Numbered from the stretch's first letter, positions 1 through 64,000 are shown. The stretch is 64,000 bases of DNA from a virus (IMGVR_UViG_3300035208_001992), one strand, 5' to 3'. A program made the numbers and translations. Notes: a model not told the origin generated them from the sequence alone.

Positions 1-58
1 TCAATATGTATTCATATGCAGTTGGCGGTGCAACAGTTTCACACGCGTGCCTAGCCAC
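1..58 (-). CDS. MARH-tag family protein, 5' end only (MARHACETVAPPTAYEYIL..., runs off window)
   Basis: Read by hand: GTG GCT AGG CAC GCG TGT GAA starting at 58. Overlaps the TAG (51-53) of the upstream mini-gene by 8 nt. Confidence 0.8.
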   Translation of the reverse strand, partial: MARHACETVAPPTAYEYIL

Positions 59-4172: not shown

Positions 4173-4821
4173 ACGTCATTCTCCTGTTTGTCAGCATACT
4201 TCAGTTTGTGTTGGCAATAAAGCTCAACTAACTTTGTTGGTGATACCGCTTTGTCAACTATGAGATCATCAAGCGGCACATACGTTGATGACCAGCACTG
4301 TTGTTGTTGATCAACATGAAACCTCAACACGTCCGATGGATTATTGACTTGAAACATCGACATAGTCAGCGGTTCGGTTTTGAGGATCAAGAAATCCACA
4401 GTGTCGAGCTTGTCATCGCCAGCTAGACACTCATAATCATTCTTGTGCACGCAAACGCCATCGATCCAAGCGTCAACAACTGCTACCTTAGCTATACTCA
4501 TTCGCGTGCTTTGTGGCAGCGCATCAACAAAGCGTTGCGGCGTTGTAGCGGTAACTAGTGCGTCATTGACGACAAAGCAATCATCAGCAACTGCCGACGT
4601 TAGATACAAGCGCCGACCTAGCTTGCATTCTAGCAACAGCGATCCGACGACCAATAAACTGCTTTGATGAATAGTGCCTGCTGACAAAAATGTCTAAGAC
4701 GGCTATCGTCTGAGTAAACCATCATGAATTCTATTCCGTAGATTTCAACCATGTTCGACTTACTGATCGCCGAAACTAGTTGAATCCACAGAGGTCTTTG
4801 CTCATACGCATGACGCGGCAC
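4169..4821 (-). pseudogene. MARH-tag family gene (MPRHAYE) split by a 1-nt frameshift (ORFs 4630..4821 and 4169..4687)
   Basis: The tagged 63-aa ORF overlaps an untagged 172-aa ORF carrying the family blocks QRFVDALP and LDDLIVDK. Adding one T to the T5 run at 4686-4690 gives a 217-aa protein of typical family length. Confidence 0.7.
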
Positions 4822-5446
4822 CGGTCACCTCATCGTCAAAGTAGTGGACCATGCTATTGAATTTCAGCTGCTCAACAAATTTTGTCGTAGCCTGTCCCGT
4901 GGCATCTATGATCTCCAAGTCATTTATGTTCAGACCATGAACACTCGAGTATCGCGTCGACAAGCTAAATTCGCCTTCTAGTGACTGCAATGTGAGTATT
5001 AGGTCGCCGTCGACCTCACCATGGTTGATTCGACGATGTACGGCTGTTGTCACTATCTTATGCAAAACGCTAGTGACGATCTCAATTGGAAAGCTGTCGA
5101 TCACTTGCTGTGCGTTTGAACCCATGAATTGAATCACAATGCTACCAAAGTCATGCATTGCCGTGCCAGAGTCTTTATTGACGTTCAACAATGATACTGC
5201 ATGTGCTTTGTTTGGCCATGAGAGCGTCAAATAGTCTGGGTCGAACATGAGCTGCTGCGGATCTGGCGTTCGACGATCTGGCATGTTCCATGGACCTACG
5301 TGTGCACGTATCTTCAAGTCCTTGGCTACCATCAAAAATTGACGGCCTAAGAACGTTACTGGTTCTGGGCCGTCATTTACTAGACGTCTTAGCATCTTTG
5401 CGAGATGCTGAGCAGGATTCAGTTCTTCATAGGCATGTCTTGCCAC
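4802..5446 (-). CDS. MARH-tag family protein (MARHAYE, GTG start), 214 aa
   Basis: AAGGAG SD; first gene after the promoter-like motif; its TGA stop lies in codons 6/7 of the next tag. Confidence 0.85.
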   Translation of the reverse strand: MARHAYEELNPAQHLAKMLRRLVNDGPEPVTFLGRQFLMVAKDLKIRAHVGPWNMPDRRTPDPQQLMFDPDYLTLSWPNKAHAVSLLNVNKDSGTAMHDFGSIVIQFMGSNAQQVIDSFPIEIVTSVLHKIVTTAVHRRINHGEVDGDLILTLQSLEGEFSLSTRYSSVHGLNINDLEIIDATGQATTKFVEQLKFNSMVHYFDDEVTGAASCV

Positions 5447-5458
5447 TTGCGCTCCTTT

Positions 5459-5497
5459 CTATTGCTAATAGTCATTTACTCAGTCGCAAGTTTACGC
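5459..5497 (-). promoter_or_regulatory. conserved promoter-like motif GCGTAAAC-N10-GTAAAT-N4-ATTAG-N3-TAG, copy 1
   Basis: Same blocks and identical spacing as 13727-13765; spans one of the few intergenic gaps in the array. Confidence 0.65.
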
Positions 5498-6127
5498 ATG
5501 GTTAACGTCTAACATTTTGAATGAATCTTGTAAGATCTTAGCAATTTTAGCATCGTCAATCTCGTGACCAGTCACAATCTCTGCGATGTCATCAACGATC
5601 GCTCTATGTCCATCAGAGCTGATCAATGTCAAGTCGTAAGATTCATTGTCATCACTGAGATTCACGACTACTCGTCTTTTAGCAATGCAACCAGCAACGC
5701 GATAATAGCGAGCTCTCATCAGCACCTTTAGAGACTTCAATCTGTCTGTAAGCGGTAAGTTGTCGATGTAGTGCTGCAAACCAACAGGTGCTTGACTAGG
5801 CCGGCCTTGCACGGCGTTAATCACAGCCGACTCGAAAAGCGTTGTCAATGAACATGGCATCGGCACACGCACAATTGTCGACGTGGTCAGTAATGTACTG
5901 TCGGCTAAACAGGTCCAGCCAGGTTGCAAATAAAAGAAGTCACCAGAATTGTCGAAACCAATTCGGGCGCCAACGCTTATTCTGAGCACTGTGTTAATGC
6001 CAAATAGTCTTACGATGCAATCCACATATTGAATATACTCGAACTCGTTTGTCATCACTGGCCCACGTCGAAACATGCCAACGATGATTTGGTCGATCAT
6101 CAGTTGCTCATGCGCGTGTCTGGCCAT
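5492..6127 (-). CDS. MARH-tag family protein (MARHAHE), 211 aa; start corrected from 6211
   Basis: AGGAGG SD before ATG 6127; 20-nt overlap with upstream TGA at 6108. Confidence 0.85.
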   Translation of the reverse strand: MARHAHEQLMIDQIIVGMFRRGPVMTNEFEYIQYVDCIVRLFGINTVLRISVGARIGFDNSGDFFYLQPGWTCLADSTLLTTSTIVRVPMPCSLTTLFESAVINAVQGRPSQAPVGLQHYIDNLPLTDRLKSLKVLMRARYYRVAGCIAKRRVVVNLSDDNESYDLTLISSDGHRAIVDDIAEIVTGHEIDDAKIAKILQDSFKMLDVNHA

Positions 6128-6659
6128 TGCGTTGCCTCCTAGGCTTCGTGATCCTAGCGATGATAGGAGCGATCTTGTTTTCGTTGATACTGCCGTCGCT
6201 GATGACGTCACTTAATTTCACTATTTGCGACTTGAGCGTTTTGTTGAAACCAATGATTACACTACGGCTGTATCCAACGATCGTACTGTTACGCGTGTAG
6301 CAGACACTGACGTATTTGTTGTCTTTCACGCCCATCTCTTCGATGCATGCTCTGACCGCATGCTCGATTAGATCCACTTTGATTTCGCTCAACACATTCT
6401 TGATCACGCTTTTAGCGATGTTCAACGGATCAACTATGGTGCTAGTGAAAAGATAGTAGTAGGCGTCATCTCCTTGGTGAAGATGAGCAACATCGACTCT
6501 GCCACGCCAAGGAGCTGCGCTTGGAACAGCATACAGCAGACCAACAGGATCCAAACGCAATTCAAAGATGATGCCGTCCAGCTTGAACTCTTGACCAGCG
6601 CATACAGCGCGTCGCACGCGCGAGCCGTTAGTTAGTGGTTCATACGCGTGTCTACTCAT
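6108..6659 (-). CDS. MARH-tag family protein (MSRHAYE), 183 aa; start corrected from 6716
   Basis: ATGAGTAG 8-nt overlap; blocks FKLDGIIF and VISDGSIN. Confidence 0.85.
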   Translation of the reverse strand: MSRHAYEPLTNGSRVRRAVCAGQEFKLDGIIFELRLDPVGLLYAVPSAAPWRGRVDVAHLHQGDDAYYYLFTSTIVDPLNIAKSVIKNVLSEIKVDLIEHAVRACIEEMGVKDNKYVSVCYTRNSTIVGYSRSVIIGFNKTLKSQIVKLSDVISDGSINENKIAPIIARITKPRRQRNGQTRA

Positions 6660-7299
6660 CTTCGTGCAACCTCTCGCGGTAACTGCCAAGCACCCACTTA
6701 AGAACAGCCTCACCATCGATTTTGCTATTCACTGTGATGTCGGCTATTTTGACGTTTGTTCTTTCTATGTCAAAATGCCTTTTGTAGCGCTTATTTGGTG
6801 GCAGCCATAACGCAGATAAGCTTAAGCGATTATTGCACCATACAGAAAAGATCAAATCGCTATGCACATACATACTATGCGTGCGCCTAACAGCTATGGA
6901 ACTTGGCAGTTCATCGTTGAACGGTAGCAAACTTGATTTCACGAGCATATCAATGATGCTTGACTTCGTTGGGCCAGGCATGCCATTCGTCAGCTGCATC
7001 TCATCAGTTGCAGTAAAGGCATACATTCCAGTGGCAGTGCGCGAGTACACAATGTCATTGCGCTCATAAGATTCACGTGCAATGTTGATCTTTGACAATG
7101 ATTCGGGATCATGACAGTCAATCATCACACGTCCAAAATCATGCGTGGCTTCTTCACCATCTTCATTCATGAAATAGAATGGCTCTTCATGTGAGCAGAC
7201 TAAGGCATTCAACCCACAAATTTCGATTGTTGCTGGCTTGCTGACAAGTGATCGAGCCCAGTCTATAGGTTGCATTCGTTCGTACATGTGCCTAGCCAT
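6652..7299 (-). CDS. MARH-tag family protein (MARHMYE), 215 aa; start corrected from 7356
   Basis: GGAG SD; ATGGCTAG overlap with the mini-gene stop at 7292. Confidence 0.85.
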   Translation of the reverse strand: MARHMYERMQPIDWARSLVSKPATIEICGLNALVCSHEEPFYFMNEDGEEATHDFGRVMIDCHDPESLSKINIARESYERNDIVYSRTATGMYAFTATDEMQLTNGMPGPTKSSIIDMLVKSSLLPFNDELPSSIAVRRTHSMYVHSDLIFSVWCNNRLSLSALWLPPNKRYKRHFDIERTNVKIADITVNSKIDGEAVLKWVLGSYRERLHEDE

Positions 7300-7456
7300 G
7301 TGATGCAGTCTCCATTTGTTCGCGATCATGCAGCATTCGAGCAAGCACTTGGTCACTAACTTGCAAGGTTTGGAATGGCTTCAAAGTTCCGTTCATTTGC
7401 ATAAAACTCACAACGATTTCTACTATGCCTGGCACTTCACATGCGTGCCTAGCCAT
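7292..7456 (-). CDS. MARH-tag mini-protein, 54 aa (MARHACEVPGIVEIV...ASHG), not in ORF track
   Basis: Translated by hand; coupled at both ends by ATGGCTAG overlaps. Confidence 0.8.
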   Translation of the reverse strand: MARHACEVPGIVEIVVSFMQMNGTLKPFQTLQVSDQVLARMLHDREQMETASHG

Positions 7457-7631
7457 GAGACATCAACCTAGCTGCAGGTGGCCTGATCTGTATAAGTGAT
7501 TCGGTGAACTGTTTGAACATCTTCTCAGCATCGACTTGCCCAAACGTTGACACTTCGTCAAACGCGCACCAAACTCGCGTGCCGCCGCGCAATCGCTGAA
7601 CATCAGGTACTTCACAACCGTGTCCAGCCAT
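7449..7631 (-). CDS. MARH-tag mini-protein, 60 aa (variant MAGHGCEVPD...); start corrected from 7673
   Basis: AGGAG SD 8 nt before ATG 7631; upstream mini-gene stops at the TGA inside the tag (7612). Confidence 0.75.
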   Translation of the reverse strand: MAGHGCEVPDVQRLRGGTRVWCAFDEVSTFGQVDAEKMFKQFTESLIQIRPPAARLMSHG

Positions 7632-7776
7632 TTGAGATCTCCTGTCGACGACGTCTTTCTTCCATTGCTTCATTTATCCATTTTGGTGACAAGTCATAGA
7701 CTCGTATCATGCGCCCGTCATTGCGCTCAATTGTCATGACATTTTCGTCTTTCACTTCTGCGCCGTGTCTAGCCAT
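7612..7776 (-). CDS. MARH-tag mini-protein, 54 aa (MARHGAEVKDENV...GWTRL), not in ORF track
   Basis: GGAGG SD before ATG GCT AGA CAC GGC GCA GAA at 7776; open to TGA at 7612. Confidence 0.8.
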   Translation of the reverse strand: MARHGAEVKDENVMTIERNDGRMIRVYDLSPKWINEAMEERRRRQEISNGWTRL

Positions 7777-8408
7777 TTGGCAACCTCCGCTTCTTTGAAT
7801 TTGTCAAAGCATATAAGTGCTCGCTCGAACAGGAAGTGTTCGTCAAGAGCGCCGTCTTTGATGCATTCATCTAACTTACAAATAGGCATAGGCATGATCA
7901 TGCGTCTGTCACTTGTCATTATCGCAAAGCCGATCAGCAAGTCATGACTACTTAAGTTGTATGTAATCAGCGAACGCAACAACGTATCACGAGAAATGCT
8001 GGTGATTTTTTTGATGCTAGATAAGATGTCGTAGCGCGCGATGATTGAAGATCTGACGTGGCAACCGATTACGTTAGAAATCAAGTTGTCAGGAGCGCAA
8101 TCAATCAACTCTTGCGCGTTAATGCTGGATGGAACATTGACACGATTAGACATGTTGTACGTGCCAGCGCCATCGTCCTCTGTCGAATTGAATCGTGCAA
8201 TAACGCTTTCACCAAGATCATGCCTGAATAACCATGTCACGTTGAGCCATTGACTGTCCGCAATTATGACGCGATCTTCATCGTAATCTGAGCCACAACG
8301 CCTCCACACTTTGCCATTAAGTCCATGCATAGTCGCGTCTATTGGACAAGCTAACGCGTTCATCCAGCGAGTCATTGGTTGACACTGTTCGTATGCGTGT
8401 CTAGGCAT
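7752..8408 (-). CDS. MARH-tag family protein (MPRHAYE), 218 aa; start corrected from 8441
   Basis: ATGCCTAG overlap; blocks QELIDCAP and CIKDGALD. Confidence 0.85.
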   Translation of the reverse strand: MPRHAYEQCQPMTRWMNALACPIDATMHGLNGKVWRRCGSDYDEDRVIIADSQWLNVTWLFRHDLGESVIARFNSTEDDGAGTYNMSNRVNVPSSINAQELIDCAPDNLISNVIGCHVRSSIIARYDILSSIKKITSISRDTLLRSLITYNLSSHDLLIGFAIMTSDRRMIMPMPICKLDECIKDGALDEHFLFERALICFDKFKEAEVAKWLDTAQK

Positions 8409-9057
8409 GGGTAGTATACAGCTTTCCAAATACAGCTTCAATCTGGTCTTTGGTTTGCTGCTTGAACGACAAGACCAAACGCATTATTCTATAGCGATCG
8501 AAATCACCATCACGCAACAGCGACGACAATGGAGCGCTTGCTGTTTCGGAGACGTTGAAGTGCGTGCTTGTCGCGCCAATCACAGCAAATTTTACATGCA
8601 ACGCGTCTTGCGCGTCTTCACTGATGACAACGTCCATCTTTGAGACGCAGTCACTCACATAGCTACTACGCCGAGACAAATCGAACGTTTTCACAACGTA
8701 ATCCTGAAAGGCATATCGCAGCAACTGCAACTTCTTGGACTTCGGAAGTTCGTCGACAATCTGCTGTGGCTCGCGACAATCCAATGGCTGACGTATACTA
8801 GTGAATCGGTCATTGCCTTCACGCCAGTTAGCCACAAAGTAATCGCGAGAACTCAAATATGATGTGTCAATAATCAAGCTCTTGAATGGGAATGTCATAA
8901 GCATGTCGCACTTGTCTTGATCTGTACCAGGCACTCCAATGAGCCAATCGAGCCTGAGCACACAGTTGACTCCGCAAAGTTTGACGTGTTGCGGTGTAGC
9001 AAGGCACTTCACTTGATCTTCCCATATTTGTCGATGTTCGACTGCATGCCTGCTCAT
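8401..9057 (-). CDS. MARH-tag family protein (MSRHAVE), 218 aa
   Basis: GGAG SD; ATGA overlap; blocks VKLCGVN, QQIVDELP and LLRDGDFD. Confidence 0.85.
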   Translation of the reverse strand: MSRHAVEHRQIWEDQVKCLATPQHVKLCGVNCVLRLDWLIGVPGTDQDKCDMLMTFPFKSLIIDTSYLSSRDYFVANWREGNDRFTSIRQPLDCREPQQIVDELPKSKKLQLLRYAFQDYVVKTFDLSRRSSYVSDCVSKMDVVISEDAQDALHVKFAVIGATSTHFNVSETASAPLSSLLRDGDFDRYRIMRLVLSFKQQTKDQIEAVFGKLYTTHA

Positions 9058-9686
9058 GCTTGTGCTCCAACGCGTTTGTCTTCGACAATTAAGCGCTTTT
9101 CAAGTAGTGACAGACTTAGCAATTTAGGCAAGTTGAACTTACCGTCTTCGCACACGTCAGCAATAGTGATCACAGCAACACCATGATGCTTGACATAGTC
9201 ACTCAACCTTCTTGTGATATAGCATTCTTTGAGGTCACAGCTGACAACGATTGACATCAAGCCAAACGTGATCTCGTATCCGATCGATCTGGCGTACAAT
9301 ATAAGGGCGTTAGTCAAGATCGACTCGAACACATTTCTGAGGTCAGTCGCAGGTATTGCGTCGACCAATGATTGAAGCGACGAGCTGCATATTGCATCAG
9401 CATGTCCGTTGATGTACTTAGATGCGGCGTCATGCTGGTAGATGAAAACATCGCTCTCGTCATCATACCAAGCAATAGCACAACCGTACTTGTTTTGACC
9501 GTAGCTCAACGCAAGACGGTCAGTCGTCTTAGGAACGAGCTCGTCGAACTTGCGCGTTGCATCTGCATTGAACATGCGTGCGCTCAAATCAATCAAGCCA
9601 ACGTGTACAACGTTGTTGTGTTGGATCATTTTGAGAAGATCTTGGTATTTGAGCACTTTACCGATCTCGCACATATGTCTAGCCAT
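9054..9686 (-). CDS. MARH-tag family protein (MARHMCE), 210 aa
   Basis: AGGAG SD; ATGGCTAG overlap; blocks QSLVDAIP and VCEDGKFN. Confidence 0.85.
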   Translation of the reverse strand: MARHMCEIGKVLKYQDLLKMIQHNNVVHVGLIDLSARMFNADATRKFDELVPKTTDRLALSYGQNKYGCAIAWYDDESDVFIYQHDAASKYINGHADAICSSSLQSLVDAIPATDLRNVFESILTNALILYARSIGYEITFGLMSIVVSCDLKECYITRRLSDYVKHHGVAVITIADVCEDGKFNLPKLLSLSLLEKRLIVEDKRVGAQA

Positions 9687-10374
9687 GTCCGATTACTCCT
9701 ACCTCGTCAGATGGCACTGTTACTCCAGCAGTGTTGAATCCGTTCAATGTAAGCTGCTCAAGCACATACTTGTCAACGCGCTTCACGTTCTCGACTAAGC
9801 TAGACATTGTACAGATTTTCTTGGCGTGGACAAGCACATCATAGTCACCGTTGCGCCAGACTAACTTTGTGAATTTGTTGTCGCTTCTTACCATTCTTAT
9901 GTTCGGCAGGTCGAGAATCAATGATGCAACATATTCAACTATGGTGAACAAAATCTGAGACAATGCATAATAGTGTTGTTGCGTGCCAGTGAATTCATCA
10001 ACAAGATCTTGAAGTCTGCCACAAAACGCTGTTGGTAATTTGTACCAGCTATTCTCAGAACCGGAACTGAACAGCTGCATGTCAGGTTGGTATGTGCCAC
10101 GACAAATTCGCGCTAGCGTGACTGATCTCGTAATGAACTTAAGAGGAGCACTAAGATCAAGATTGAGCATCGCAACGCTAACCGGCATGATATTGAACTC
10201 ATTGTCAAGCATGCTCACTTGCTCTTCACCAGACATACGAGTCATTGTGAAGAATGCACTGCTTACTGTGGCATCAATTCCGCAAAGTTTGATCGACAAT
10301 TGCTGGTTGCCGCGATCGAGATACTCCACCAAGCGATCACGTGGACTGACTCGTTCTGTCATGTGTCTAGCCAT
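9679..10374 (-). CDS. MARH-tag family protein (MARHMTE), 231 aa; start corrected from 10407
   Basis: GGAGG SD; TAATG overlap; blocks IKLCGID and QDLVDEF. Confidence 0.85.
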   Translation of the reverse strand: MARHMTERVSPRDRLVEYLDRGNQQLSIKLCGIDATVSSAFFTMTRMSGEEQVSMLDNEFNIMPVSVAMLNLDLSAPLKFITRSVTLARICRGTYQPDMQLFSSGSENSWYKLPTAFCGRLQDLVDEFTGTQQHYYALSQILFTIVEYVASLILDLPNIRMVRSDNKFTKLVWRNGDYDVLVHAKKICTMSSLVENVKRVDKYVLEQLTLNGFNTAGVTVPSDEVGVIGHG

Positions 10375-11129
10375 TACAGCAACCTCCGCGTATGATGCAG
10401 CTTCCAAATTTCGTCGTCTTTCACAGCAATGATGTCTTTCAACTTTGCCTCATCAAATTTCACAGCTTTAGCAGCAGACAGCGTGATGACGTCGACTCGA
10501 CGTTCAGCGCTCGCGTTTGTCATGACGACAAAGTCTTTCTTGACTCGACGTATATGGAATCTAGAGCCTTCCAATGAGTACGCCAGCACATAGTTGAGCA
10601 GCATTCTAGCTAACAGCGCGTCTTTGTCTTTAGCGCTGAGCTCATTCAACTGTTGCTTAATCACGTCCTGTCCAACGACCAGGTTGAATGGTTCTAAATC
10701 GCATGCTGGGTCTACGCGCCCGAACACGCGTCTACCACCATCAAAATTCGAACCATATAGCAAAGTCACCACATCGAATTGGTCGTCGGACGTTGCCGCA
10801 ACAAACGGGACGTCGATCGACGTTGCAGTCTGTGTGGTCGACTTTATTGATGCGAAGAACATTTCAGCAAAGCTACTGTAGCTCTTCCAACCGTCACGCG
10901 TTGTAACTGCATTGATCGGAAAATGAGCAGTGCTTGGATCAGAGCAATCGTCTAGTACGAGCTCAACTGTTTCTCTAAGATTGCTATCGACATATGTAAG
11001 TCTCTTTGCCGCTGAAGTAACGATGATCGGCAATCCATCGATCTCTAACTCGACTGGATCAGCGTACTTGATGAGTGCTTCAGCAAGCATATCTCGTCCA
11101 CAAGCCTTTTCAGTCATATGCCTAGGCAT
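10374..11129 (-). CDS. MARH-tag family protein (MPRHMTE), 251 aa
   Basis: ATGCCTAG overlap; block LEIDGLPI. Confidence 0.85.
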   Translation of the reverse strand: MPRHMTEKACGRDMLAEALIKYADPVELEIDGLPIIVTSAAKRLTYVDSNLRETVELVLDDCSDPSTAHFPINAVTTRDGWKSYSSFAEMFFASIKSTTQTATSIDVPFVAATSDDQFDVVTLLYGSNFDGGRRVFGRVDPACDLEPFNLVVGQDVIKQQLNELSAKDKDALLARMLLNYVLAYSLEGSRFHIRRVKKDFVVMTNASAERRVDVITLSAAKAVKFDEAKLKDIIAVKDDEIWKLHHTRRLL

Positions 11130-11769
11130 GATGCCTCAACAGTTTCTTGCGCTCCAATTCAGCGCGTAAGAACGTGAGCGGATGCTGGTACGACGCAAGT
11201 GTTCTGACGCTGCTGACAACTACATGCGTTGAAAGGAAGAGTGCAGCATCATCATTTCCAATAGGCTTGGCATAGCAAGTTTTTGTTCCTCCATCTTTGC
11301 AAAAGTTAGCGAGTGCTGCCAAGACGCATTTGCAACCAAACCAGAATTTGGTCTCATTGCTTAGCATGTCAAACGCTTCTCGTATGCTATTGACGGATCG
11401 ATATGATACTGCTTGCATCTCAATCGTTGATGACCTAGCCCAATCAGATGCTGTTTCAGCGTTCATCACTGCGATGTAAAACAAGCCAGATCCAAAGTTT
11501 GTGGCGAGGAAAGAATGCCAGTCAGTTGGAAGACGCTTCTCGTCCAAGCTGCCATCTGTCAGTTGCGCGTCACCGAGGTTGAACATCATGTTGGACGACG
11601 TGTTCTTTGCAAAAGCATATGCACTCTTCACAACTGTTTCAACATTAACGCGACATGGACGGACGTTCATTTGCAGATTGCCGAATAGTGGCACGCGTTC
11701 TTCTTGGCATTCGAACACTCGTTTGATCTGGTCTTCGAACGTTACTTGCTCAGCCATGTGTCTAGCCAT
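11122..11769 (-). CDS. MARH-tag family protein (MARHMAE), 215 aa
   Basis: GGAG SD; ATGGCTAG overlap. Confidence 0.85.
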   Translation of the reverse strand: MARHMAEQVTFEDQIKRVFECQEERVPLFGNLQMNVRPCRVNVETVVKSAYAFAKNTSSNMMFNLGDAQLTDGSLDEKRLPTDWHSFLATNFGSGLFYIAVMNAETASDWARSSTIEMQAVSYRSVNSIREAFDMLSNETKFWFGCKCVLAALANFCKDGGTKTCYAKPIGNDDAALFLSTHVVVSSVRTLASYQHPLTFLRAELERKKLLRHHA

Positions 11770-12439
11770 GAAGTGGGCTCCAATTCCGTATCAGTTCATT
11801 GCGTAGTTTAGCATATGGACGATCTGGCTCATGTATGATGCTTGCAACGTCACTAACAATGACGCTACCCTTTTGAGTATCATACAGTTCGATCAATCCG
11901 TCTGCGTTCAAGTGCATTCCAATGCGTTGCGGTACGTTACCGCATGCACCACCGAATTCCTGAGCAACATACATGTTGAGCTCATCTTGGTACTCGCGTG
12001 TGATGAACATGTCTTTGTGACATTTGCTCAAGCAATTAAACGCGTCTTGTATCGACTGCACTTCTAAATATGGCACAAGCTCACTGTCATTTCTTGTAGC
12101 ATACATCCAAGCTAGCGCACTTGGACGTCTTAGCGCAAAATGCTGTGACCTATACGATATGCCGTCCACTGACAGCAGACCATAACGACTCAAATCTTGT
12201 TTGGTCACAATCCTGTCATCGCTTGAAGGCCACATAATATATGATTCAATAATTGGCCTGCTAACTTGGTCAGGCATGTTCACGAACATCTTACGTTCTA
12301 TAGGCTCGCGTTGATTGAGCGACGTGTAGATCTTTATCTTCAGCTCTTTGTTCAACTCGAATGTCTGTGGTTCACTATTGTGTAGGACGCAAAGACAATG
12401 GAAGAAGCTTGGTCTAGTTTCAGTAGCATGCCGACTCAC
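11762..12439 (-). CDS. MARH-tag family protein (MSRHATE, GTG start), 225 aa; closest paralog of 13029..13694
   Basis: AAGGAG SD; aligns by eye with 13029..13694 (LRRPSALAWMY/LRTPNAYARIY; VIVSDVASII/VIISDVSQII). Confidence 0.85.
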   Translation of the reverse strand: MSRHATETRPSFFHCLCVLHNSEPQTFELNKELKIKIYTSLNQREPIERKMFVNMPDQVSRPIIESYIMWPSSDDRIVTKQDLSRYGLLSVDGISYRSQHFALRRPSALAWMYATRNDSELVPYLEVQSIQDAFNCLSKCHKDMFITREYQDELNMYVAQEFGGACGNVPQRIGMHLNADGLIELYDTQKGSVIVSDVASIIHEPDRPYAKLRNELIRNWSPLHG

Positions 12440-12466
12440 AGCAGATCTCCTTTGTTGATGACGTTG

Positions 12467-13036
12467 TTAGAACCAGCGTTCAACCTCTTCAATATCTATC
12501 ATGTGATTCGACACCAGTGCGCTGAGCATTATCTCAGGTGAGACGAAGAGCATCTCTTCAATGAAGCAGTGAGCGACTAGTCCAATGTCTTTTCCATGCG
12601 TGTTAGCAGTCAGGCGAGTCAAATGTGCTTGCCTGACTGCTTTGATCCGCTTACCTTCATGACCAATCTTGCTGAATCTTGATCGTCGCAAAACGCCTTT
12701 GACCATCTCAGTAGCAACTATGCCTTGATGCGCTTCTGACATGTCATCAATCAACTGCTGTGGATCAGCGCTGTGCATGGTAAGTTCTTCGTCAATCATT
12801 ATCATGTACTCGCTGCTCAACTTCTTGTGGCCGATCATGACGTTGAACTCATTGACGCGCTTCAATCGAACAGCATGTGATAACTCCAAGTCACTCTCAT
12901 CGCCTTCGTACACGTTTTCAAATGTGTCGATGACCATAGTGCATTCGATGTCATGGAACATCACCGTTTGCTCTTCACGCAAGTTGCTGGCCAATCGCGT
13001 CCAGCACGACAGTTCTTCTGGCATATGCCTAGACAT
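12467..13036 (-). CDS. MARH-tag family protein (MSRHMPE), 189 aa; start corrected from 13120
   Basis: GGAG SD; ATGTCTAG overlap; block QQLIDDMS. Confidence 0.85.
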   Translation of the reverse strand: MSRHMPEELSCWTRLASNLREEQTVMFHDIECTMVIDTFENVYEGDESDLELSHAVRLKRVNEFNVMIGHKKLSSEYMIMIDEELTMHSADPQQLIDDMSEAHQGIVATEMVKGVLRRSRFSKIGHEGKRIKAVRQAHLTRLTANTHGKDIGLVAHCFIEEMLFVSPEIMLSALVSNHMIDIEEVERWF

Positions 13037-13694
13037 GAGTACGACTCCATTGACGTACAAATTCATCGTAGAATTTGACGTACGGTTCATCAACCTCATT
13101 GATGATCTGTGACACGTCACTAATGATCACTTCTTCACAGGTGGAGTACGTTACGTCTAAGACATCTTCATTTATGACAACATTCAAAAACGTGCGTACG
13201 TCATTTATGCCGCGCTTCACTGAAAGATCTATTGCGAGTCTAAGGAAGAACTCGCTCGTGATGATCACGTCTTTGGTTAGCTTACTCAAGCACTCCCAAG
13301 TTTGTTTGATGGATCTGATGTCTTTGCACAACACGCTTTTGGATCCTTCAGCAAACGGATAAATCCTGGCATATGCGTTTGGCGTTCTCAACAGCATCTC
13401 TTCTGAAGCGAGTGATTCACTAGATGCCATCAGCAAGACGAATCGTGACGCTGGTCCTAATTCTGGATCAGTTCTAGTTTCGTTGGTTGTCCACGTTGCC
13501 CAGCCGTTGACTATTGGATGATGCAGTGTCTTGGATGTGTCTTGTGGGTACAGTATGTCATCAATAGATGCTGGAGTAGCGCTAACGCGCATCTGCAAAT
13601 CACTGTTCAATACGAATATCTGCGGATCGCAGCGTTTGATGTCACATAGGCAATTGTAGATGTCATCACGATCTTCGAATGCATGTCTAGCCAA
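13029..13694 (-). CDS. MARH-tag family protein (MARHAFE, TTG start), 221 aa; first gene of the array
   Basis: AAGGAG SD; lies downstream of the nrdJ terminator and the promoter-like motif. Confidence 0.85.
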   Translation of the reverse strand: MARHAFEDRDDIYNCLCDIKRCDPQIFVLNSDLQMRVSATPASIDDILYPQDTSKTLHHPIVNGWATWTTNETRTDPELGPASRFVLLMASSESLASEEMLLRTPNAYARIYPFAEGSKSVLCKDIRSIKQTWECLSKLTKDVIITSEFFLRLAIDLSVKRGINDVRTFLNVVINEDVLDVTYSTCEEVIISDVSQIINEVDEPYVKFYDEFVRQWSRTHV

Positions 13695-16525: not shown

Positions 16526-17317
16526 TTAGCCTGGCATGATTCCAAGAGATCCACTGTAACGGCGCTTCATAGACTGTTGCAAGATGCGCAAGCGCCTGAC
16601 AAGTTCTAGCCGTGCTCTTGGCGTTGTGTTCTCGATGAATCTCTTGTACTTCGGCGGCAACAGTTTCGCTTCGATCGATTCGATCATCAATGATTCTGGC
16701 GGAGCTTTGATGAAGAGCGCAATCTTAGTGCTATCAGCCTTGCCACCAATCGACGCTTCGTCAAGAAGACGAGCACCGCGTTGCTCGAGGATGTAAATGA
16801 TCTCTTCGATGTATGCCCGTATCTCAGTTGGCGATCCATGATACGCTTTGTCGTGCTCAGGCGTCTTCTTCTCGAGGCCACGCGTACGCGTAGTTGCTGC
16901 CTGCTTCACGAACTTTGACTTCTTTGACATATAGTCGACAGCATGTACTATCTCATGCACGATCGAGCCACGATACGCGTCAAAGTACACGGTCGAGAAC
17001 GGTACATGAGGCACGCCACGAGCATCGATCACGTGCTTTTGCATTATGGACAGCCGCACGCGCATATGCTCTTTTGAGAAACCAGCACGCACTGATTTAT
17101 CATCGTCAGGCTTGATTTCGAACTTCAAATTCAATGGCACGTCAAGAGACTTGATCATGCCATGCGGGCCTTGCACATTACGTAGCACTAAGACTACAGA
17201 CTTATCTTCAAGTCGCAGTCCGTAGGCGTCAACGCACTTAGACACGATCTGACTTTCGATTTCATGCGTCAATGGCGAGTGATCAAAAGAGGCACCGGCA
17301 ATCGTTTGCTGGTCCAT
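16526..17317 (-). CDS. HEXXH (zincin-like) putative metallopeptidase
   Basis: IVHEIVHAVD with downstream Y.GSPTEIRAY (possible third ligand Glu); GGAG SD. Confidence 0.6.
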   Translation of the reverse strand: MDQQTIAGASFDHSPLTHEIESQIVSKCVDAYGLRLEDKSVVLVLRNVQGPHGMIKSLDVPLNLKFEIKPDDDKSVRAGFSKEHMRVRLSIMQKHVIDARGVPHVPFSTVYFDAYRGSIVHEIVHAVDYMSKKSKFVKQAATTRTRGLEKKTPEHDKAYHGSPTEIRAYIEEIIYILEQRGARLLDEASIGGKADSTKIALFIKAPPESLMIESIEAKLLPPKYKRFIENTTPRARLELVRRLRILQQSMKRRYSGSLGIMPG

Positions 17318-28935: not shown

Positions 28936-31143
28936 TTAGAACGGTTGAATCACGTATTGATCATCGACAGTTGACGGCCGCACAAAGTAGGCAGCAAAGC
29001 CACGGCAACGACCTGAGATGACGAATGAGACAGATTCCCAAGCACCATCTATGAATCCAGCAAATAGACTTCCAGTGCAATCATCAGCAAGCGGCACAAG
29101 CACTGCTTCTGCGCGATCACCACTTGCGCGACGAATTACGATGCGCACTGATCCCTTCTTTGCATAGTTCTGGTCAGTGCCAAATAAAACCACAACAAGC
29201 CTTAGCCACTCAGCTGGATTGACGCGAAGTGGAATTTGACGTGACCGATAGCATTGCGCAACGCCACTTGAGTCTGCAAGCTTTGCGTCAATTACTGGCG
29301 TGTTGATTTCACCGCGACCATCCCAATCGATAGTATCAGCTGCAATCACTGTCGGCTGCAAGAAGTCTTCAGCCACAACAAGCTGCGCGCGTTGACCGAG
29401 ACCAAGCGCGTTGTCGATGCCTGGCATCACTTCAGCTGCTTGCTGTAAGCTTGTGTATCCGTGTTTGCCATCGCGCACAACTGTGAGCACACGTCGCTCG
29501 TCGAGCACACTTGTTAGCTTGACACCATCCCAAAAGGCAGATGCAAGTTGAGCGGTCTTTGCATATGTTGCTTCTTGCTTCAGCATCACAGCAAATAGCG
29601 CAGCGCCAACGTTGTCCATTGCGTATTCAGCTGTGTTCAACGCAGTGACTGAATCGACGCTTGCATATACGTTCTTTGTGAAGTGCACTTGCTTTGGCTC
29701 TTCGTAATCGGCCGGCACAGCTGCATCGATCCAGCTGTCGACGTCAAAGACGAGAACCTCATCTTGATTCAGGCCGTTCACGTCCGTGCCTTCGATTCTG
29801 AACGCAACAGTCGACGCAGGATTTGGTGGCATATCTGTCAACGCAATTCCAACGCGTCCTGGAGAAGGAATGCTTGTGTCAATCTCGTACCTGACGTTAG
29901 CGCTTTGCAGCACTTCAGTGAAAGCCATCACTATTGTTGGATCGATGTAGACTTGACCGTTCGTTCCTGCATGGAACGTCAACTGACGAGGCACTGCACC
30001 GTACTTGCGTACTGGAACTGTTGTACGCAACAACGCGGTCTTTGCAAGGCCACCAGTGATCACGATATCATCGTTCGCCACAGCATTGAATGTCACCGAG
30101 GTGTTGTCGTACTTTTGCACTGAGCCAGTTGCTGTGCGGCAATACACAATCACAAGATCATGCGTTGGACGCGAGTTGATGAGCAGCAACACGTTCTTCG
30201 TGCCAGCAATCCAATCAATCGCGATCTCTTGATCACCAGCATAGGCACGGAATATGACGTTAGCCATAGTCGTGAGTTCGACGTAGAAGCAGCTCGGTTT
30301 CGAGAACCAAGAACGACGCGTCACAGACCCATCAGTGTCGATCTTGATTGCGCTTGGCGCGAAAGTGTCACTACAGATGTAGCCAGATATTCCTGGCACA
30401 GACTGAGCGCTGCTCAAGATCATGCCAGAATTCGTGAGTTGGTCATATGGCTTTAGCCGACCAACAGACAAGTCATTGATGTCAATTCCATGTGGGTTGC
30501 GCACTGTAGGTGTGCCTGAACCAACATAGTTTCGGTGCACAATATCGCATGCGCTGAACCACGGACGATTCCAAGAATAGCCGTTTGAGTTGTCAGTGAT
30601 CAGCAGCGGAATGTCTCCATCGGACCAGATCACAACGCCGAGCACAACCATCGAATCAAGCACATCACGCGTGAATAGCGTCGAATCGTAGTAGTCGCTA
30701 AGCAGCACAGTTGACACAACCACAGACTGGACGAAGCCAACGCTTACCGTCTGTCCATCAGTCGTCAACGCGAGCTCATCAGAACGCTTCTCTGTTCGTT
30801 GGACATATACGAGCGTTTCTGAACCGCGCGATATCCCTGTTAGCGTAGCAGTTGTTGCTTCATTCAACGTGATCACGTCGCCTATTGGCGTGACTGCAGA
30901 GCCAGGAAACACAGTGACTTTCGAGTAGTCACTTGTATTGAGCACAGGCCAAAGTGGACGAGCTGTCCCATCAGCATTGTAGCGTGGATCAACAGCGTCG
31001 ACAATGCCGTAGCCATTGTTCGACATGAAGCGCGTGCGCTCACGCATTGAATCTTGCAAGAACATCAAGTGCCGACTAAGTGAATCAGGTGTCATGACTC
31101 CTGCGGCAGTATTCACAGACGACAAGAGGCTAGGCTCACTCAT
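28936..31143 (-). CDS. putative baseplate/tail structural protein, 735 aa; paralog of 49836..52358
   Basis: Shares HR...NPHGIDINDLSV...QL...G and FRIEGTDVNG blocks with 49836..52358. Confidence 0.6.
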   Translation of the reverse strand: MSEPSLLSSVNTAAGVMTPDSLSRHLMFLQDSMRERTRFMSNNGYGIVDAVDPRYNADGTARPLWPVLNTSDYSKVTVFPGSAVTPIGDVITLNEATTATLTGISRGSETLVYVQRTEKRSDELALTTDGQTVSVGFVQSVVVSTVLLSDYYDSTLFTRDVLDSMVVLGVVIWSDGDIPLLITDNSNGYSWNRPWFSACDIVHRNYVGSGTPTVRNPHGIDINDLSVGRLKPYDQLTNSGMILSSAQSVPGISGYICSDTFAPSAIKIDTDGSVTRRSWFSKPSCFYVELTTMANVIFRAYAGDQEIAIDWIAGTKNVLLLINSRPTHDLVIVYCRTATGSVQKYDNTSVTFNAVANDDIVITGGLAKTALLRTTVPVRKYGAVPRQLTFHAGTNGQVYIDPTIVMAFTEVLQSANVRYEIDTSIPSPGRVGIALTDMPPNPASTVAFRIEGTDVNGLNQDEVLVFDVDSWIDAAVPADYEEPKQVHFTKNVYASVDSVTALNTAEYAMDNVGAALFAVMLKQEATYAKTAQLASAFWDGVKLTSVLDERRVLTVVRDGKHGYTSLQQAAEVMPGIDNALGLGQRAQLVVAEDFLQPTVIAADTIDWDGRGEINTPVIDAKLADSSGVAQCYRSRQIPLRVNPAEWLRLVVVLFGTDQNYAKKGSVRIVIRRASGDRAEAVLVPLADDCTGSLFAGFIDGAWESVSFVISGRCRGFAAYFVRPSTVDDQYVIQPF

Positions 31144-59301: not shown

Positions 59302-59330
59302 GAGTTAGTCAATTCTGGACTGACTAACTC
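59302..59330. repeat. perfect 10-bp inverted repeat GAGTTAGTCA-N9-TGACTAACTC
   Basis: Overlaps the stop codon of 59329..61452; weak U-tract, so either a terminator or an operator. Confidence 0.6.
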
Positions 59331-61452
59331 AAAGTTTGAAGTATTCGCGCAAACGGTCAAGCAATCCGCGTGACGGCTTGTCTTCTTTGATCAAGCCCAT
59401 CTCATACAGCGCTGAATCGACTTTGATATATTGCTTGCCAAGATTTTCAATGACGTTGTGAGCGAACCACCAAGTGTTCTGTCCATCGTTGAGTGTTGGG
59501 ATATCGACTTCACCTTGACGTAGCTGCGAGAAGATCACAGCTTGTAGTGGGTTGTCAATCTCGCCACTAAATATGGTCAGTGGCTTATGCATTCTGTCAC
59601 CGCTGCTTGACTGAAGTTTGAGATCAGGCAGCACCTTGCTGTACTTGGCCTTAAGACGATCAAGCTCAGTTTGGTCAATCCGCGTTGAGTACACCTTCAC
59701 ATGGATTGGCCAGTGGGTCACTGCATCACGTACAAGCTTGATCCATGGCGCATGTTCTGGAGTTTCACTTGCTACTCGCGCAGTGACTTCAGCATCAATT
59801 GGTAGCACGGTGTATCCCCTCTTGATCACGTTATCGATTTGTTTTTGCATTGTTGTTAGCGTATCTCGTATATCCACGCCATCTTCAGAATCATAAATGA
59901 ATCCTTTGCTGTCTATCCTTTCCAGAAGACTGGGCGATAACGACGTGTTGAAACCAATGCACATGATTTCTTTGTCTCGCGTTGTCACATACAATGATGG
60001 CTTCATTGTTCTGCCAAATAGGTCTTTAGCCTCTTTGACAGCGCGTGCAACAGCACGATTAAGCTCATTTGTAAAGTAGCCTGGCATCTTCACGTAGAAT
60101 GTTCCAACCCAAGGCTTGTCCTTCGACTCTGGCGCAACGCGAGCTTCAACGTCGTGTGATGTCCTATGCAACGTCCAACGCCCAAGTCGTTTTTTGACGC
60201 TAAAGATTTCTAAATCTGGATACCGTTTTTCTTGCATGTAGCGACGTTCAGCAAGGGCATGTCCTGCTTTCTGCTTTTCCCAGAAATCAAGAATTGACTG
60301 ATCATCAGTCAAATTTGATATGGCAGATTTAGCGTGGTCAATCATCATTTTGGGTGTCAGCTCTAGCCGATACGCAACGGCCATCACTTTTCTCTCTGCG
60401 TTAGCGATGCCGCGCGTACTGCGCGCAGCTGCCTTTACTGGCACCACGTTCTTGATACCTCGCTTGGATAGCCACGCCAAATCGCTATGAACTAGTGTGC
60501 CAAGTGGATCAGTCCCATTTGGCCCGTTGTTCATCACCCAGTACTCAGGAATCACCATTGGCTTCAAGATGACTTCTTCGCTTGCAACGCGAGCTACTAC
60601 AGCGCTCGGTGATAGCATATGTTTCTTGACAAGCTGAGCTTGCATTGTTGCTTTATAGCTCTTCACGAATTCACTCGCTTCGATTTCGCTGGTAGGGAAA
60701 TCTGTTGACCAAAGCATTTTCAACGTGTGATCTGAGTGGCATAAGTCATCAGGCCAAACAGTGAGATTAAAGAAATCTTCAGCTTCTTTGAAGCTCCTGA
60801 TTTCGATTTCGACGATTGCTAGAATTGAATTTGATTCATGCTGCGTTAGTTTCACAACGTTATGAAGCTTTATGAATCTGACGCGCGCATTTTTATCTAA
60901 AGACCGCTTGACCTTTTCTTCGATTTTAGAAACAACAATTATCTTTGGCATCAGCATGAAATATGGAGCGACCAACGTGATTGGAAACAGAGGTGTCTCA
61001 GGCGCGACGCGAGCTGTTACTGCTTGATCCGCAATCGAATACTTGCCGCCTGGTTTGCGCTTGATCACGTATAACTTTGCTTGAGAAAAAAAGTTTATGA
61101 TTACAGTGTCTTTGTTGGTCATGCTGCGCTTTTGGCGTTTCCAAAAGTCTACTACTTGCGCGTCATCATAGTCTACACCGGCGTTAGTCAAGTAGTTTAC
61201 TTGATCTTGCATTGTCAACTTCAGCTTGAACGAAATCGCTAGTACAGTTTCGGCATCATGCGATACGACTGCTGCTTTGACTGGCTCAACATGGTCGCGG
61301 TTTACACCATTCGTGACGAAGTAGTCGTAACCAAATTCGATTGCTTCGTCTAATTGCTTTGTGCGCGACATTTGAAGCCAATACTCTTTGATCACTATTG
61401 GCTTGATCTTCTCGACCTCTGCAGCAGTTCTGGCTGAGACTAACAAGCTCAT
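59329..61452 (-). CDS. modular (polyprotein-like) protein, 707 aa, five modules delimited by V-x-A-R-(V/T)-A-x-E
   Basis: Linker Val codons at 61440, 61020, 60600, 60150 and 59787; modules 1 and 3 are homologous. Confidence 0.8.
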   Translation of the reverse strand: MSLLVSARTAAEVEKIKPIVIKEYWLQMSRTKQLDEAIEFGYDYFVTNGVNRDHVEPVKAAVVSHDAETVLAISFKLKLTMQDQVNYLTNAGVDYDDAQVVDFWKRQKRSMTNKDTVIINFFSQAKLYVIKRKPGGKYSIADQAVTARVAPETPLFPITLVAPYFMLMPKIIVVSKIEEKVKRSLDKNARVRFIKLHNVVKLTQHESNSILAIVEIEIRSFKEAEDFFNLTVWPDDLCHSDHTLKMLWSTDFPTSEIEASEFVKSYKATMQAQLVKKHMLSPSAVVARVASEEVILKPMVIPEYWVMNNGPNGTDPLGTLVHSDLAWLSKRGIKNVVPVKAAARSTRGIANAERKVMAVAYRLELTPKMMIDHAKSAISNLTDDQSILDFWEKQKAGHALAERRYMQEKRYPDLEIFSVKKRLGRWTLHRTSHDVEARVAPESKDKPWVGTFYVKMPGYFTNELNRAVARAVKEAKDLFGRTMKPSLYVTTRDKEIMCIGFNTSLSPSLLERIDSKGFIYDSEDGVDIRDTLTTMQKQIDNVIKRGYTVLPIDAEVTARVASETPEHAPWIKLVRDAVTHWPIHVKVYSTRIDQTELDRLKAKYSKVLPDLKLQSSSGDRMHKPLTIFSGEIDNPLQAVIFSQLRQGEVDIPTLNDGQNTWWFAHNVIENLGKQYIKVDSALYEMGLIKEDKPSRGLLDRLREYFKL

Positions 61453-61898
61453 TCTCTGACCCCGATTGCTTGTCCAATGAAGTTGCGAACCTTTTCACTG
61501 CCAGTATTGTATTTCTCAACAATGGCTTTGACCAAGTCGTCAACAGAGCGCGCATGGCTGTCAAGCTTCACAAAGAAAATAGCGCGGCCCATACCACCAC
61601 CGCGAGGCATGCCAACGTTCTCAGCAGAAAAAGCTCGTAATTTGTCGAAGTCAAGTTTGGTGAATCTTTCATCGCGCAAACTCTCAATGATGTCTTCTGG
61701 TGCTGCATCAGGAATCAACAACGTGTACGCAACAAGTCTGAATGCTTCACATGTCTCTGCAAAGTCGAATATGTCATGCTGTATGAGTGCACGCAATTTC
61801 TTTGCGATGTCATTTGGATCATGTGGCTCGCCTGACCGACGAGCTACTACAAGTCCAGCGCGTTGCGCAATTGCTGCTACGTTGTTAGTACTGCTCAT
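61449..61898 (-). CDS. hypothetical protein, 149 aa (start 61898, TGATG overlap)
   Basis: GAGG SD; contains VVARR near the N-terminus. Confidence 0.7.
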   Translation of the reverse strand: MSSTNNVAAIAQRAGLVVARRSGEPHDPNDIAKKLRALIQHDIFDFAETCEAFRLVAYTLLIPDAAPEDIIESLRDERFTKLDFDKLRAFSAENVGMPRGGGMGRAIFFVKLDSHARSVDDLVKAIVEKYNTGSEKVRNFIGQAIGVRE

Positions 61899-63223
61899 CA
61901 GATGCCTCGCTGTTTCGAAAACCATTCAAGATCTGCCCGTGTCTTAATCGTCTTGGTCTTGATCAAACGCTTGTTCGCGTACCAAGCTACTCTGAACTCG
62001 ACTTGCCTCGGAAGCTTGTCAATGACGGCGTTCCACAGGTATTCGATTTCGTCTGCTTGGAAGTGTCCGTTGCGACGGCAATGGTAGACAATGATCCTAT
62101 CACCTGCAACAGTCGATCGCACGACATGGATTGGCGTCTTCACACCAGCTTCCTTCTCGACTCTCAATGAGAATCCAGCTTGCTTGAAGATCTTGCTCTC
62201 TAACGCAACGTCACGCACGTTTTCTGCGTCTTTGATGAAGACAACTGGAGCAAACTTAGGATGCAGTAGTGCCTTCGTGACATGCGCGTCTTGACTTGCA
62301 AGGAAGCCGCGATATGGATCAAGCAATTTCCTGAATTCGACGCGCTTCTCAGGCGTCCATACGAACGTGTCTTCTGTGATGCTCTTGATCATGAACGCTG
62401 CAAGACTCTTGTACAGGTCAGACAGCTGCTTCTTGGATCCGCGCCAATGCAAAGTCCTTGACAAAGCATCGAGCATAGTACTCATTTCAGCAGGCGAGCG
62501 CTCGACTGTAGCCAACGATGCTTTGACCACGTTCCACTTGGCATCTTCACCAATCAACTTTGGAAGCGTCTCGTTGTTGATCACGACGTAAACAGGATCG
62601 CCATCTTTGATGTAGTAAAGTCTGATCTGCGCGATGTGGCCAAGCTTGCTATAGAGCAAAGACAGTTTCTTGTGCTCAACAGGATTCGAGCGCTCAGCGT
62701 TAGTAGCCTTGCACTGTGCAAGGACAACGCCACGAGTCGAAATCGCAATGATGTCAACAGCTCCATAGCTTCCTGCTGAGCGGCCAACCCAAATGTACTT
62801 ATTGCTCGCACGCATCTTCTTTGCTTGAGCAGCCTCAAAACCGAAGCCAGCGTCACGGCGCTCAATCTGTCTTTGGATACCGACCTCATGAGAGACCGCA
62901 TTCTTCGACGGCGGGAACTCCTTGAGGAAGTCGACAAGTGCTCGGCCATCTTGAAATCCAGCGAACTTGTATTTTGCAGTGAGCTTTGTGAACTCTGCCA
63001 AGATCTCTGTTGACAAAGGACGACCAACAGGCTTGCGAACGTTTTTGCCTTGCTTCTTTGCTTCACGCTGTGCTTTGGCTTGACGCGCTCTAGCAATGAG
63101 CCCAAACCAAATTGGGCGCACTTCTTCATATAGCTTCACTAAAGCGTCGTGATGCTTGCCTGGCACACCATCAGCTATGAGCTTACGGATGCCGCGTACG
63201 TTAGCTTCAACTGAATGCGTCAT
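61898..63223 (-). CDS. PD-(D/E)xK nuclease, Hjc-like Holliday-junction-resolvase domain, with a possible degenerate second copy
   Basis: G.GFE...K.R...RSAGSYGAVDIIAI...VLAQCK matches the archaeal-type Hjc pattern. Confidence 0.65.
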   Translation of the reverse strand: MTHSVEANVRGIRKLIADGVPGKHHDALVKLYEEVRPIWFGLIARARQAKAQREAKKQGKNVRKPVGRPLSTEILAEFTKLTAKYKFAGFQDGRALVDFLKEFPPSKNAVSHEVGIQRQIERRDAGFGFEAAQAKKMRASNKYIWVGRSAGSYGAVDIIAISTRGVVLAQCKATNAERSNPVEHKKLSLLYSKLGHIAQIRLYYIKDGDPVYVVINNETLPKLIGEDAKWNVVKASLATVERSPAEMSTMLDALSRTLHWRGSKKQLSDLYKSLAAFMIKSITEDTFVWTPEKRVEFRKLLDPYRGFLASQDAHVTKALLHPKFAPVVFIKDAENVRDVALESKIFKQAGFSLRVEKEAGVKTPIHVVRSTVAGDRIIVYHCRRNGHFQADEIEYLWNAVIDKLPRQVEFRVAWYANKRLIKTKTIKTRADLEWFSKQRGI

Positions 63224-64000
63224 GCTATTTTCCTGTATGTAAGCTTGCGTGCTTCTTGCTCATAAGGTTGCCAGTGTATGCCTTTGGCTGCTCGAGCAAG
63301 CGCTTCACGGCTGAACTTCTTAAGAACTTCAATCACGTCATCAACATTGTCGTAAGTTACTCTGACGTGCTTTGCAAAATACATGTAGCCAATGCGAAAA
63401 ACATCTTCATCATTTTCATATGTGCGCTCAACAAGCGCATCTATAACGAGGCCTTCTTCATCACACCAAAGGCCAATGACTCGTTGACGTAAGTCCAGTC
63501 CGCGATCTATGTTACTAAGCTCTCGTATGGCTGCGTCATGTCTAAGTCCATACGGACTCAAGCCGTACTCGTGCGCAAGCTTGAATGGGTACGTATCAGC
63601 TTCGACTGCAACGCGCGCACTAACGTCTTTGTCTTCTATTTCTTCTATTTCTTCTACTTCTTCCGCAGACCCATCAGAAGTTTTGTCGAAGTATTTGGCG
63701 GCAGAAGGAGTGACTTTGAATTTTATGCCGGGCTTGTGAGCTTTGTAGACAGGATGCGTGTTGTTGCCTGGAAGGACGCCATATACAGCTTTGCCAAACG
63801 AATTGGCGTTCCTAAAAACAATGCCATCATAGCCTGAGTTTTTCAGAAGAGCAGCGAATTCAAGACTGCCACCAATCGTTTCACGAAGTATGAAGTATGG
63901 CTTTTTTGGAACATCTCCACCTTTATATTGCTCATAATTGATGCCGTCATTAGGATGATGTATCATCACGTTGCTGCCGTTCACATAGAACGACTGCACA
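63220..64000 (-). CDS. hypothetical protein, probably 3' part only (may start beyond window), with a VSARVAVE linker
   Basis: ORF open to the window edge; linker Val at 63624; contains GYDGIVF. Confidence 0.7.
   Translation of the reverse strand, partial: VQSFYVNGSNVMIHHPNDGINYEQYKGGDVPKKPYFILRETIGGSLEFAALLKNSGYDGIVFRNANSFGKAVYGVLPGNNTHPVYKAHKPGIKFKVTPSAAKYFDKTSDGSAEEVEEIEEIEDKDVSARVAVEADTYPFKLAHEYGLSPYGLRHDAAIRELSNIDRGLDLRQRVIGLWCDEEGLVIDALVERTYENDEDVFRIGYMYFAKHVRVTYDNVDDVIEVLKKFSREALARAAKGIHWQPYEQEARKLTYRKIA

Follow-up and report, generated by a model that had tools for sequence, protein, structure and literature searches.

An eight-residue, glutamate-ending tag heads every module of a 707-residue jumbo phage protein and may be a head-protease site

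Several head-maturation proteases of phages recognize sites that end in glutamate. T4 gp21 and the proteases of phiKZ and 201phi2-1 all cut C-terminal to Glu, and SPN3US gp245 cuts after A-x-E. Among the substrates, phiKZ gp93 is cut at SLE-13, and SPN3US gp53 and gp54 have an AXE-12 site. Another substrate, phiKZ gp162, is cut at 17/18 and at 137/138, and the capsid contains more than one of the resulting pieces, so that retention of several pieces from one precursor has precedent. Here we describe a 707-amino-acid (aa) protein encoded in a 64,000-nucleotide (nt) stretch of viral DNA (IMGVR_UViG_3300035208_001992; this whole stretch is hereafter called the window). In this protein, an eight-residue tag with the consensus [VI]-x-A-R-[VIT]-[AGS]-x-E heads each of five modules. 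The tag resembles the head-protease site of giant phages, which makes cleavage of the chain into five small proteins probable.

Two other described systems are relevant to this protein. The capsid targeting sequence of T4 is a portable leader of 10 residues, present in IPI, IPII, IPIII and Alt and removed by gp21, in which targeting and processing determinants are separable. In addition, the polyvalent proteins of phages and conjugative elements carry unrelated domains on one chain, for which co-delivery with the DNA and release by a peptidase were proposed (Iyer et al. 2017, PMC5512222).

The gene (59329..61452, minus strand) is an uninterrupted, ATG-started open reading frame (ORF) for a protein of 80.7 kDa with an isoelectric point of 9.1. 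The strict pattern V-x-A-R-[VT]-A-x-E starts at residues 5, 145, 285, 435 and 556. The tag-to-tag distances are thus 140, 140, 150 and 121 codons, and translation of the ORF and the motif positions bear out the five tag-separated modules reported in an earlier note on this DNA. The last module has 144 aa past the tag Glu; the length of 152 aa given previously is correct if counted from the tag Val. The features are as follows, with confidence given as the predicted local distance difference test score (pLDDT) of an AlphaFold model of residues 285-707, and with relatives of the protein designated P0002, P0004, P0006 and P0007.

61417..61452, minus strand: N-terminal leader, residues 1-12, with tag 1 (VSARTAAE) at residues 5-12; predicted propeptide that would be removed
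61021..61416, minus strand: module 1 body, residues 13-144; paralogue of module 3
60997..61020, minus strand: tag 2 (VTARVAPE), residues 145-152
60601..60996, minus strand: module 2 body, residues 153-284; P0002/P0006 and P0007 contain a homologue
60577..60600, minus strand: tag 3 (VVARVASE), residues 285-292; modelled as coil, in the first low-confidence stretch (model residues 1-10)
60151..60576, minus strand: module 3 body, residues 293-434; conserved more strongly than any other module, mostly pLDDT 74-87
60127..60150, minus strand: tag 4 (VEARVAPE), residues 435-442; in the middle of a 17-residue coil with pLDDT <50
59788..60126, minus strand: module 4 body, residues 443-555; its homologue is the second module of P0004, and it is absent from P0002 and P0007
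59764..59787, minus strand: tag 5 (VTARVASE), residues 556-563; in a low-confidence stretch (model residues 270-283), helix by DSSP
59332..59763, minus strand: module 5, residues 564-707; last in every family member with a visible C-terminus

When the 707-aa protein was shuffled 20,000 times, the strict motif never occurred more than once per shuffle (mean 5e-05, five observed), and the relaxed form AR.A.E, also observed five times, averaged 0.013 per shuffle and reached 2 at most. When the whole window was translated in six frames, five strict copies were found in 59329..61452, one in 63220..63999 and none elsewhere. Synonymous codons differ between the copies (GCC, GCT, GCG and GCA for Ala; AGA, CGC and CGA for Arg; GTC, GTT and GTA for Val; GAG and GAA for Glu), which places the conservation at the protein level and identifies the peptide as the signal. 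Two further candidate explanations were rejected. A DNA-level signal is ruled out by this synonymous variation, and internal translation starts are ruled out because the first tag position (P8, with the tag Glu as P1) is encoded by GTC, GTA or GTT and never by GTG, and no Met is consistently nearby.

The earlier note had also proposed that modules 1 and 3 are homologous, and blastp confirmed this relationship (E 4e-13, 25% identity over 150 columns). Their alignment starts exactly at the tag. The remaining module pairs had no likeness detectable by blastp (E >= 0.025), and phmmer found no paralogues of the modules elsewhere in the window. No match to the 707-aa protein was obtained in Pfam (E <= 0.1), in PHROG (E <= 0.01) or, by tblastn, in 50,697 phage records. 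The neighbours searched alongside it in Pfam and PHROG likewise had no match that passed the cut-off. The C-terminus of module 5 is a conserved amphipathic helix, G-L-[LM]-x-R-L-R-x-x-x-x-L. This module might serve to anchor the chain or to mediate an interaction.

The family was defined by searching 1.84 billion representatives exhaustively with HMMER and then looking up cluster members. Only four other representatives were detected, and P0006 and P0007 were added from clusters. Relatives among about 15 billion proteins were limited to three other lineages, all of them multi-module chains, and scans of viral_contigs, metagenome_contigs and genome_contigs added none. The module orders are listed below, starting with the window protein (P0001).

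P0001, window protein, 707 aa: tag, module 1, tag, module 2, tag, module 3, tag, module 4, tag, module 5
P0002/P0006, 595/596 aa: tag, module A, tag, module 2, tag, module 3, tag, module 5
P0007, partial, 452 aa: module 2 (preceded by missing sequence), tag, module 3, tag, module 5
P0004, 792 aa, on a 200,689-bp contig: tag, module 3, tag, module 4, tag, X, tag, X, tag, X, tag, module 5

Comparison of the four lineages showed that gain, loss and multiplication of whole modules fall exactly at the tags. Despite this changing module content, the tag is kept at the N-terminus and at all joints across the family. Module 5 is the only module common to all members with a visible C-terminus, and it is always the final one. 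The relaxed pattern [AS]R[VITK][AGSD].[ED] matched only the N-terminus and the joints, with 5, 4, 2 and 6 matches per protein against shuffle means of 0.04-0.06. In full-length members the tag begins 5-8 residues from the Met, and none has a C-terminal tag. Their N-terminal leaders are short and propeptide-like and end in the site (12 residues in P0001, 12 in P0002 and 13 in P0004). Since the alignment of modules 1 and 3 starts at the tag, and full-length members start but never end with one, the tag is best viewed as the N-terminal part of the module that follows it.

Alignment of 18 tags defined the consensus given above. P5 is Arg in all 18. P6 is Ala in 17, P4 is V/I/T in 17 and P3 is A/G/S in 17, whereas P1 is Glu in 16 and Asp in the other two. 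P8, a position that was not in the pattern used to select these tags, is V/I in 16. Flanking positions had background information content. In addition, a weak [FL]-P followed by a hydrophobic strand was seen at P4'-P5' after about half of the 18 tags, unrelated modules included.

The tag is not confined to this family. A sixth copy is present in another ORF of the window, whose protein is unrelated to the 707-aa chain.

63601..63624, minus strand: sixth tag (VSARVAVE), in ORF 63220..63999

This copy lies at the joint between two regions of the unrelated protein, straight after an acidic linker. A homologue, P0011 (397 aa, 54% identical), retains the tag as VSARVAAE, and the acidic linker before it differs. 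ORF 63220..63999 is open to the window edge; because P0011 is about 138 residues longer at its N-terminus, the ORF is probably cut by the end of the window.

A related leader was found at the other end of the window, where about 20 tandem genes (1..13694, minus strand) start with M-[ASP]-R-H-[AMG]-x-E. This array leader and the joint tag, A-R-[VIT]-[AGS]-x-E, have a common R-x-small-x-E skeleton with equal spacing, and this likeness is explained more simply by a single recognition system that has two dialects. The tag was previously described as a second peptide code of this genome. That description was not supported; judged by the common skeleton and spacing, the joint tag is probably a dialect of the array-leader code. 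Thus, as in T4, one leader occurs on unrelated proteins, namely the P0001 family, the P0010/P0011 family and, in a variant form, the approximately 20 array genes. Like the T4 capsid targeting sequence, the tag makes a short Glu-ending leader (12 residues in the window protein) that is portable among unrelated proteins. However, the T4 leader has been described only at the N-terminus of single-body proteins, whereas the tag recurs internally at every joint.

Structure models suggested that the joints are linkers. A full-length AlphaFold model was poor (mean pLDDT 46.8), with confidence lowest in blocks that match the positions of four of the five tags; weak structure matches stay inside single modules (residues 29-144, 153-249 and 576-680). 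The model of residues 285-707, built from a shallow alignment of eight rows, had a mean pLDDT of 64. Module 3 was mostly at 74-87 and the core of module 4 at 73-81, while module 5 was at 51-72 with its C-terminal part below 50. Six stretches had pLDDT <50. Three of these (model residues 1-10, 148-159 and 270-283) hold tags 3, 4 and 5; the others lie inside module 4 (233-242) and inside module 5 (363-378 and 388-423). Tag 4 follows the final strand of module 3 and precedes the initial strand of module 4. For each of tags 3-5, the first secondary-structure element of the next module begins 5-6 residues later. Tags 3 and 4 are coil, and the helix assigned to tag 5 by DSSP is of low confidence. 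The expectation of the earlier note, independent domains connected by flexible linkers, was therefore supported for modules 3-5, which are separate with tags in low-confidence linkers, although the confidence is moderate and the alignment shallow. The five modules are probably independently folding alpha+beta units of about 13-17 kDa.

No known fold was recognized in searches with these models. VIA-align wide structure searches gave best Z scores of 5.6 and 4.6, which reflect generic alpha+beta arrangements. Foldseek detected nothing in BFVD or PDB at E <= 0.001, and in ESM Atlas there were no feature matches and all structure matches had template modelling scores <0.5.

These data also bear on whether the motif has a function at all. 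It could be part of the architecture of a repeated fold, or an inert remnant left where formerly separate tagged genes fused in frame. The paralogy of modules 1 and 3, with an alignment that begins at the tag, would fit this idea, as would the weak [FL]-P that recurs four to five residues past the tag. Nevertheless, most modules are mutually non-homologous by detection and yet all are tagged, and the tag survives at 28-39% overall identity while its flanks drift. Moreover, the tags lie in low-confidence inter-domain stretches (two of the three modelled are coil) and not inside a domain, and the same tag occurs in the unrelated protein of ORF 63220..63999. We regard a functionless motif as very improbable.

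The small residue at P3 and the Glu at P1 agree with the published site rule of Glu-specific prohead proteases of the T4 gp21 (S77) and phiKZ gp175 (S80) type, namely a small or aliphatic P3 followed by a P1 Glu. Substrates of the giant-phage enzymes (phiKZ gp175, MEROPS S80; SPN3US gp245) likewise have a small P3, P1 Glu, propeptides of 12-13 residues and several copies of the site per protein. Considering these similarities, we find it somewhat probable that the 707-aa chain is a prohead-loaded precursor that is cut after each tag Glu by the Glu-specific head protease of the phage into five small proteins. The ORF would encode a precursor whose five modules are each headed by the tag as a leader, and this precursor would be incorporated into the prohead. 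A head-maturation protease of the T4 gp21, phiKZ gp175 or SPN3US gp245 type would then cut after the tag Glu. The predicted products are a 12-residue N-terminal propeptide and five proteins with computed masses of 16.0, 16.1, 17.1, 13.7 and 16.7 kDa, which may stay in the capsid as internal or ejected proteins. Residues upstream of P3 (V/I at P8, A at P6, R at P5 and V/I/T at P4) may extend substrate recognition, direct the chain to the capsid or do both, by analogy with the T4 capsid targeting sequence. The earlier note had suggested a protease site or a packaging signal. The modular protein, the motif conserved at its joints and the match to the P3/P1 rule are in line with that suggestion; the cleavage itself, with its positions, enzyme and place in the capsid, we infer by analogy to these systems.

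The tag also differs from known sites in several respects. Compared with phiKZ gp93 and gp162 and SPN3US gp53 and gp54, which are inner-body and ejection proteins, it is eight residues long and has an invariant P5 Arg. It separates five modules of similar size that are most likely folded, in contrast to the propeptide trimming or shredding of the phiKZ and SPN3US substrates. No similarity in sequence or fold links the 707-aa protein to those substrates.

Some observations weigh against processing in the head. Because the modules match no known fold or family, nothing independently marks them as capsid cargo. A cut behind the Glu would leave an eight-residue tail at the C-terminus of modules 1-4, and to our knowledge no system with such tails has been described. 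Two of the six tags of P0004 end in Asp, and in the T4 capsid targeting sequence an Asp at the corresponding position prevents processing while leaving targeting intact. Among the window ORFs scanned (64 kb of a 305,891-bp contig), no protease match was found in Pfam or PHROG. Finally, conservation from P8 to P4 exceeds the P3-P1 rule of known proteases, and the tag could be an uncut docking motif.

If uncut, the tags would be repeated docking peptides that tie the full-length chain to the scaffold or core, the capsid interior, the portal or the DNA, similar to a multivalent cargo-loading peptide. Eight conserved residues are more than Glu-specific proteases are known to need, and both the occasional Asp in place of Glu and the separable determinants of the T4 leader are consistent with docking. 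On the other hand, a tag placed 5-8 residues from the Met and never at the C-terminus is what a removable leader would look like, the R-x-small-x-E skeleton of the array proteins stands right at Met-1, and Glu is retained in 16 of 18 tags. Docking without cleavage is thus an unlikely explanation in our assessment.

Cleavage might also take place outside the capsid. Another phage endopeptidase, or one of the host, could cut the tags in the cytoplasm, whether in the course of late expression or once the chain has been delivered, which would amount to a true polyprotein strategy. The tags at the joints and their linker position argue for cleavage and are silent on place or enzyme. Polyvalent proteins, which have been proposed to be released into units by peptidases (PMC5512222), offer a parallel: they too combine many unrelated domains on one polypeptide and are encoded among late or virion genes (PMC5512222). 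With five distinct modules in one phage polypeptide, of which modules 1 and 3 alone are alike, the window protein falls within their range of two to fifteen domains. However, it has none of their catalogued domains and no embedded zincin-like peptidase by Pfam, PHROG and HExxH scans, and release would here rely on the linear sites conserved at the joints and on a protease acting in trans. The HExxH motif is absent from every family member, and no peptidase domain was found in the 707-aa protein. The window does encode an orphan HEXXH protein (16526..17317, minus strand; 263 aa with a HEIVH motif), which was earlier put forward as a candidate protease. It had no Pfam family and no PDB sequence match, and only a weak match to a PHROG of unknown function; as it matches no protease family, that candidacy was not sustained. 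In addition, a small P3, P1 Glu and a 12-residue leader are hallmarks of head-protease substrates. We therefore consider processing outside the capsid improbable.

Within the preferred reading, processing by the head protease, a more specific arrangement can be proposed tentatively. The tag could be a self-contained cassette joint. Small proteins headed by it would be fused in frame into a chain whose anchor is the invariant module 5 at the C-terminus, and the chain would enter the capsid whole before the head protease divides it. What is new relative to known systems is a long, specific tag with an invariant Arg, placed at every joint of similar-sized modules, with cassette-like shuffling over four lineages.

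The cluster of the 707-aa protein lies on the 305,891-bp contig of an uncultured jumbo phage known from metagenomes of landfill and groundwater. All long ORFs of the window are co-directional. They include genes for a class II-type ribonucleotide reductase, a NUDIX hydrolase and a GT2 glycosyltransferase, and most others are orphans. The 707-aa gene is located in a co-directional block that adjoins large fibre-like proteins with immunoglobulin-like CHB_HEX_C/PKD domains, a location that we count in favour of processing in the head. Upstream of it are a 158-aa ORF, a 441-aa ORF and then ORF 63220..63999, in this order; the ATG of the 707-aa protein overlaps the stop of the 158-aa ORF by 4 nt (ATGA). 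The 441-aa protein (61898..63223, minus strand) is tagless, and its residues 146-179 weakly match the archaeal Holliday-junction resolvase family Hjc, below the threshold (E 0.076). Straight past the stop of the 707-aa gene, at 59304..59328, there is an 8-bp perfect inverted repeat, GTTAGTCA / TGACTAAC, with a loop of 9. A second, imperfect hairpin follows this repeat on the 3' side of the gene, and neither hairpin has a T-run.

Among sequencing runs, a landfill run and a groundwater run each contain the stretch complete and without any difference, and either could be its source. Two wastewater runs contain near-identical fragments, and informative variation was absent. No RNA run was listed among the runs that contain it. 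A 735-aa protein of the window (28936..31143) has relatives of 24-26% identity in L002, an IMG/VR sequence of 349,793 bp with direct terminal repeats, and in L003 (196,895 bp). These two do not use the ARVAxE tag (three pattern matches versus four in a reversed control). No match to PF03420 was found in either of them, and control genomes likewise had none. Two identical copies of an 18-mer lie at 313672 and 314037 in G001, a distance of 365 bp.

If the tags are cut, one gene would supply five small proteins to the capsid interior at fixed 1:1 ratios, and the tag would mark the processed head cargo of an uncultured giant phage from sequence alone. If the cassette arrangement is true, this lineage would shuffle capsid-delivered cargo by adding, deleting and multiplying units of tag plus module. 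It would then be a genuine polyprotein strategy of a DNA phage that yields at least five mature proteins, and the processed virion proteome would be readable from sequence. As a long, specific and portable cleavage or loading tag, A-R-V-A-x-E with its invariant Arg would also be a useful handle for loading foreign proteins into large capsids, and it would allow the origin of extended specificity in prohead proteases to be studied. Internal proteins of T4 that enter the host with the DNA counter host restriction. Module swapping at the tags suggests a simple route to diversify the proteins that enter the host with the DNA.

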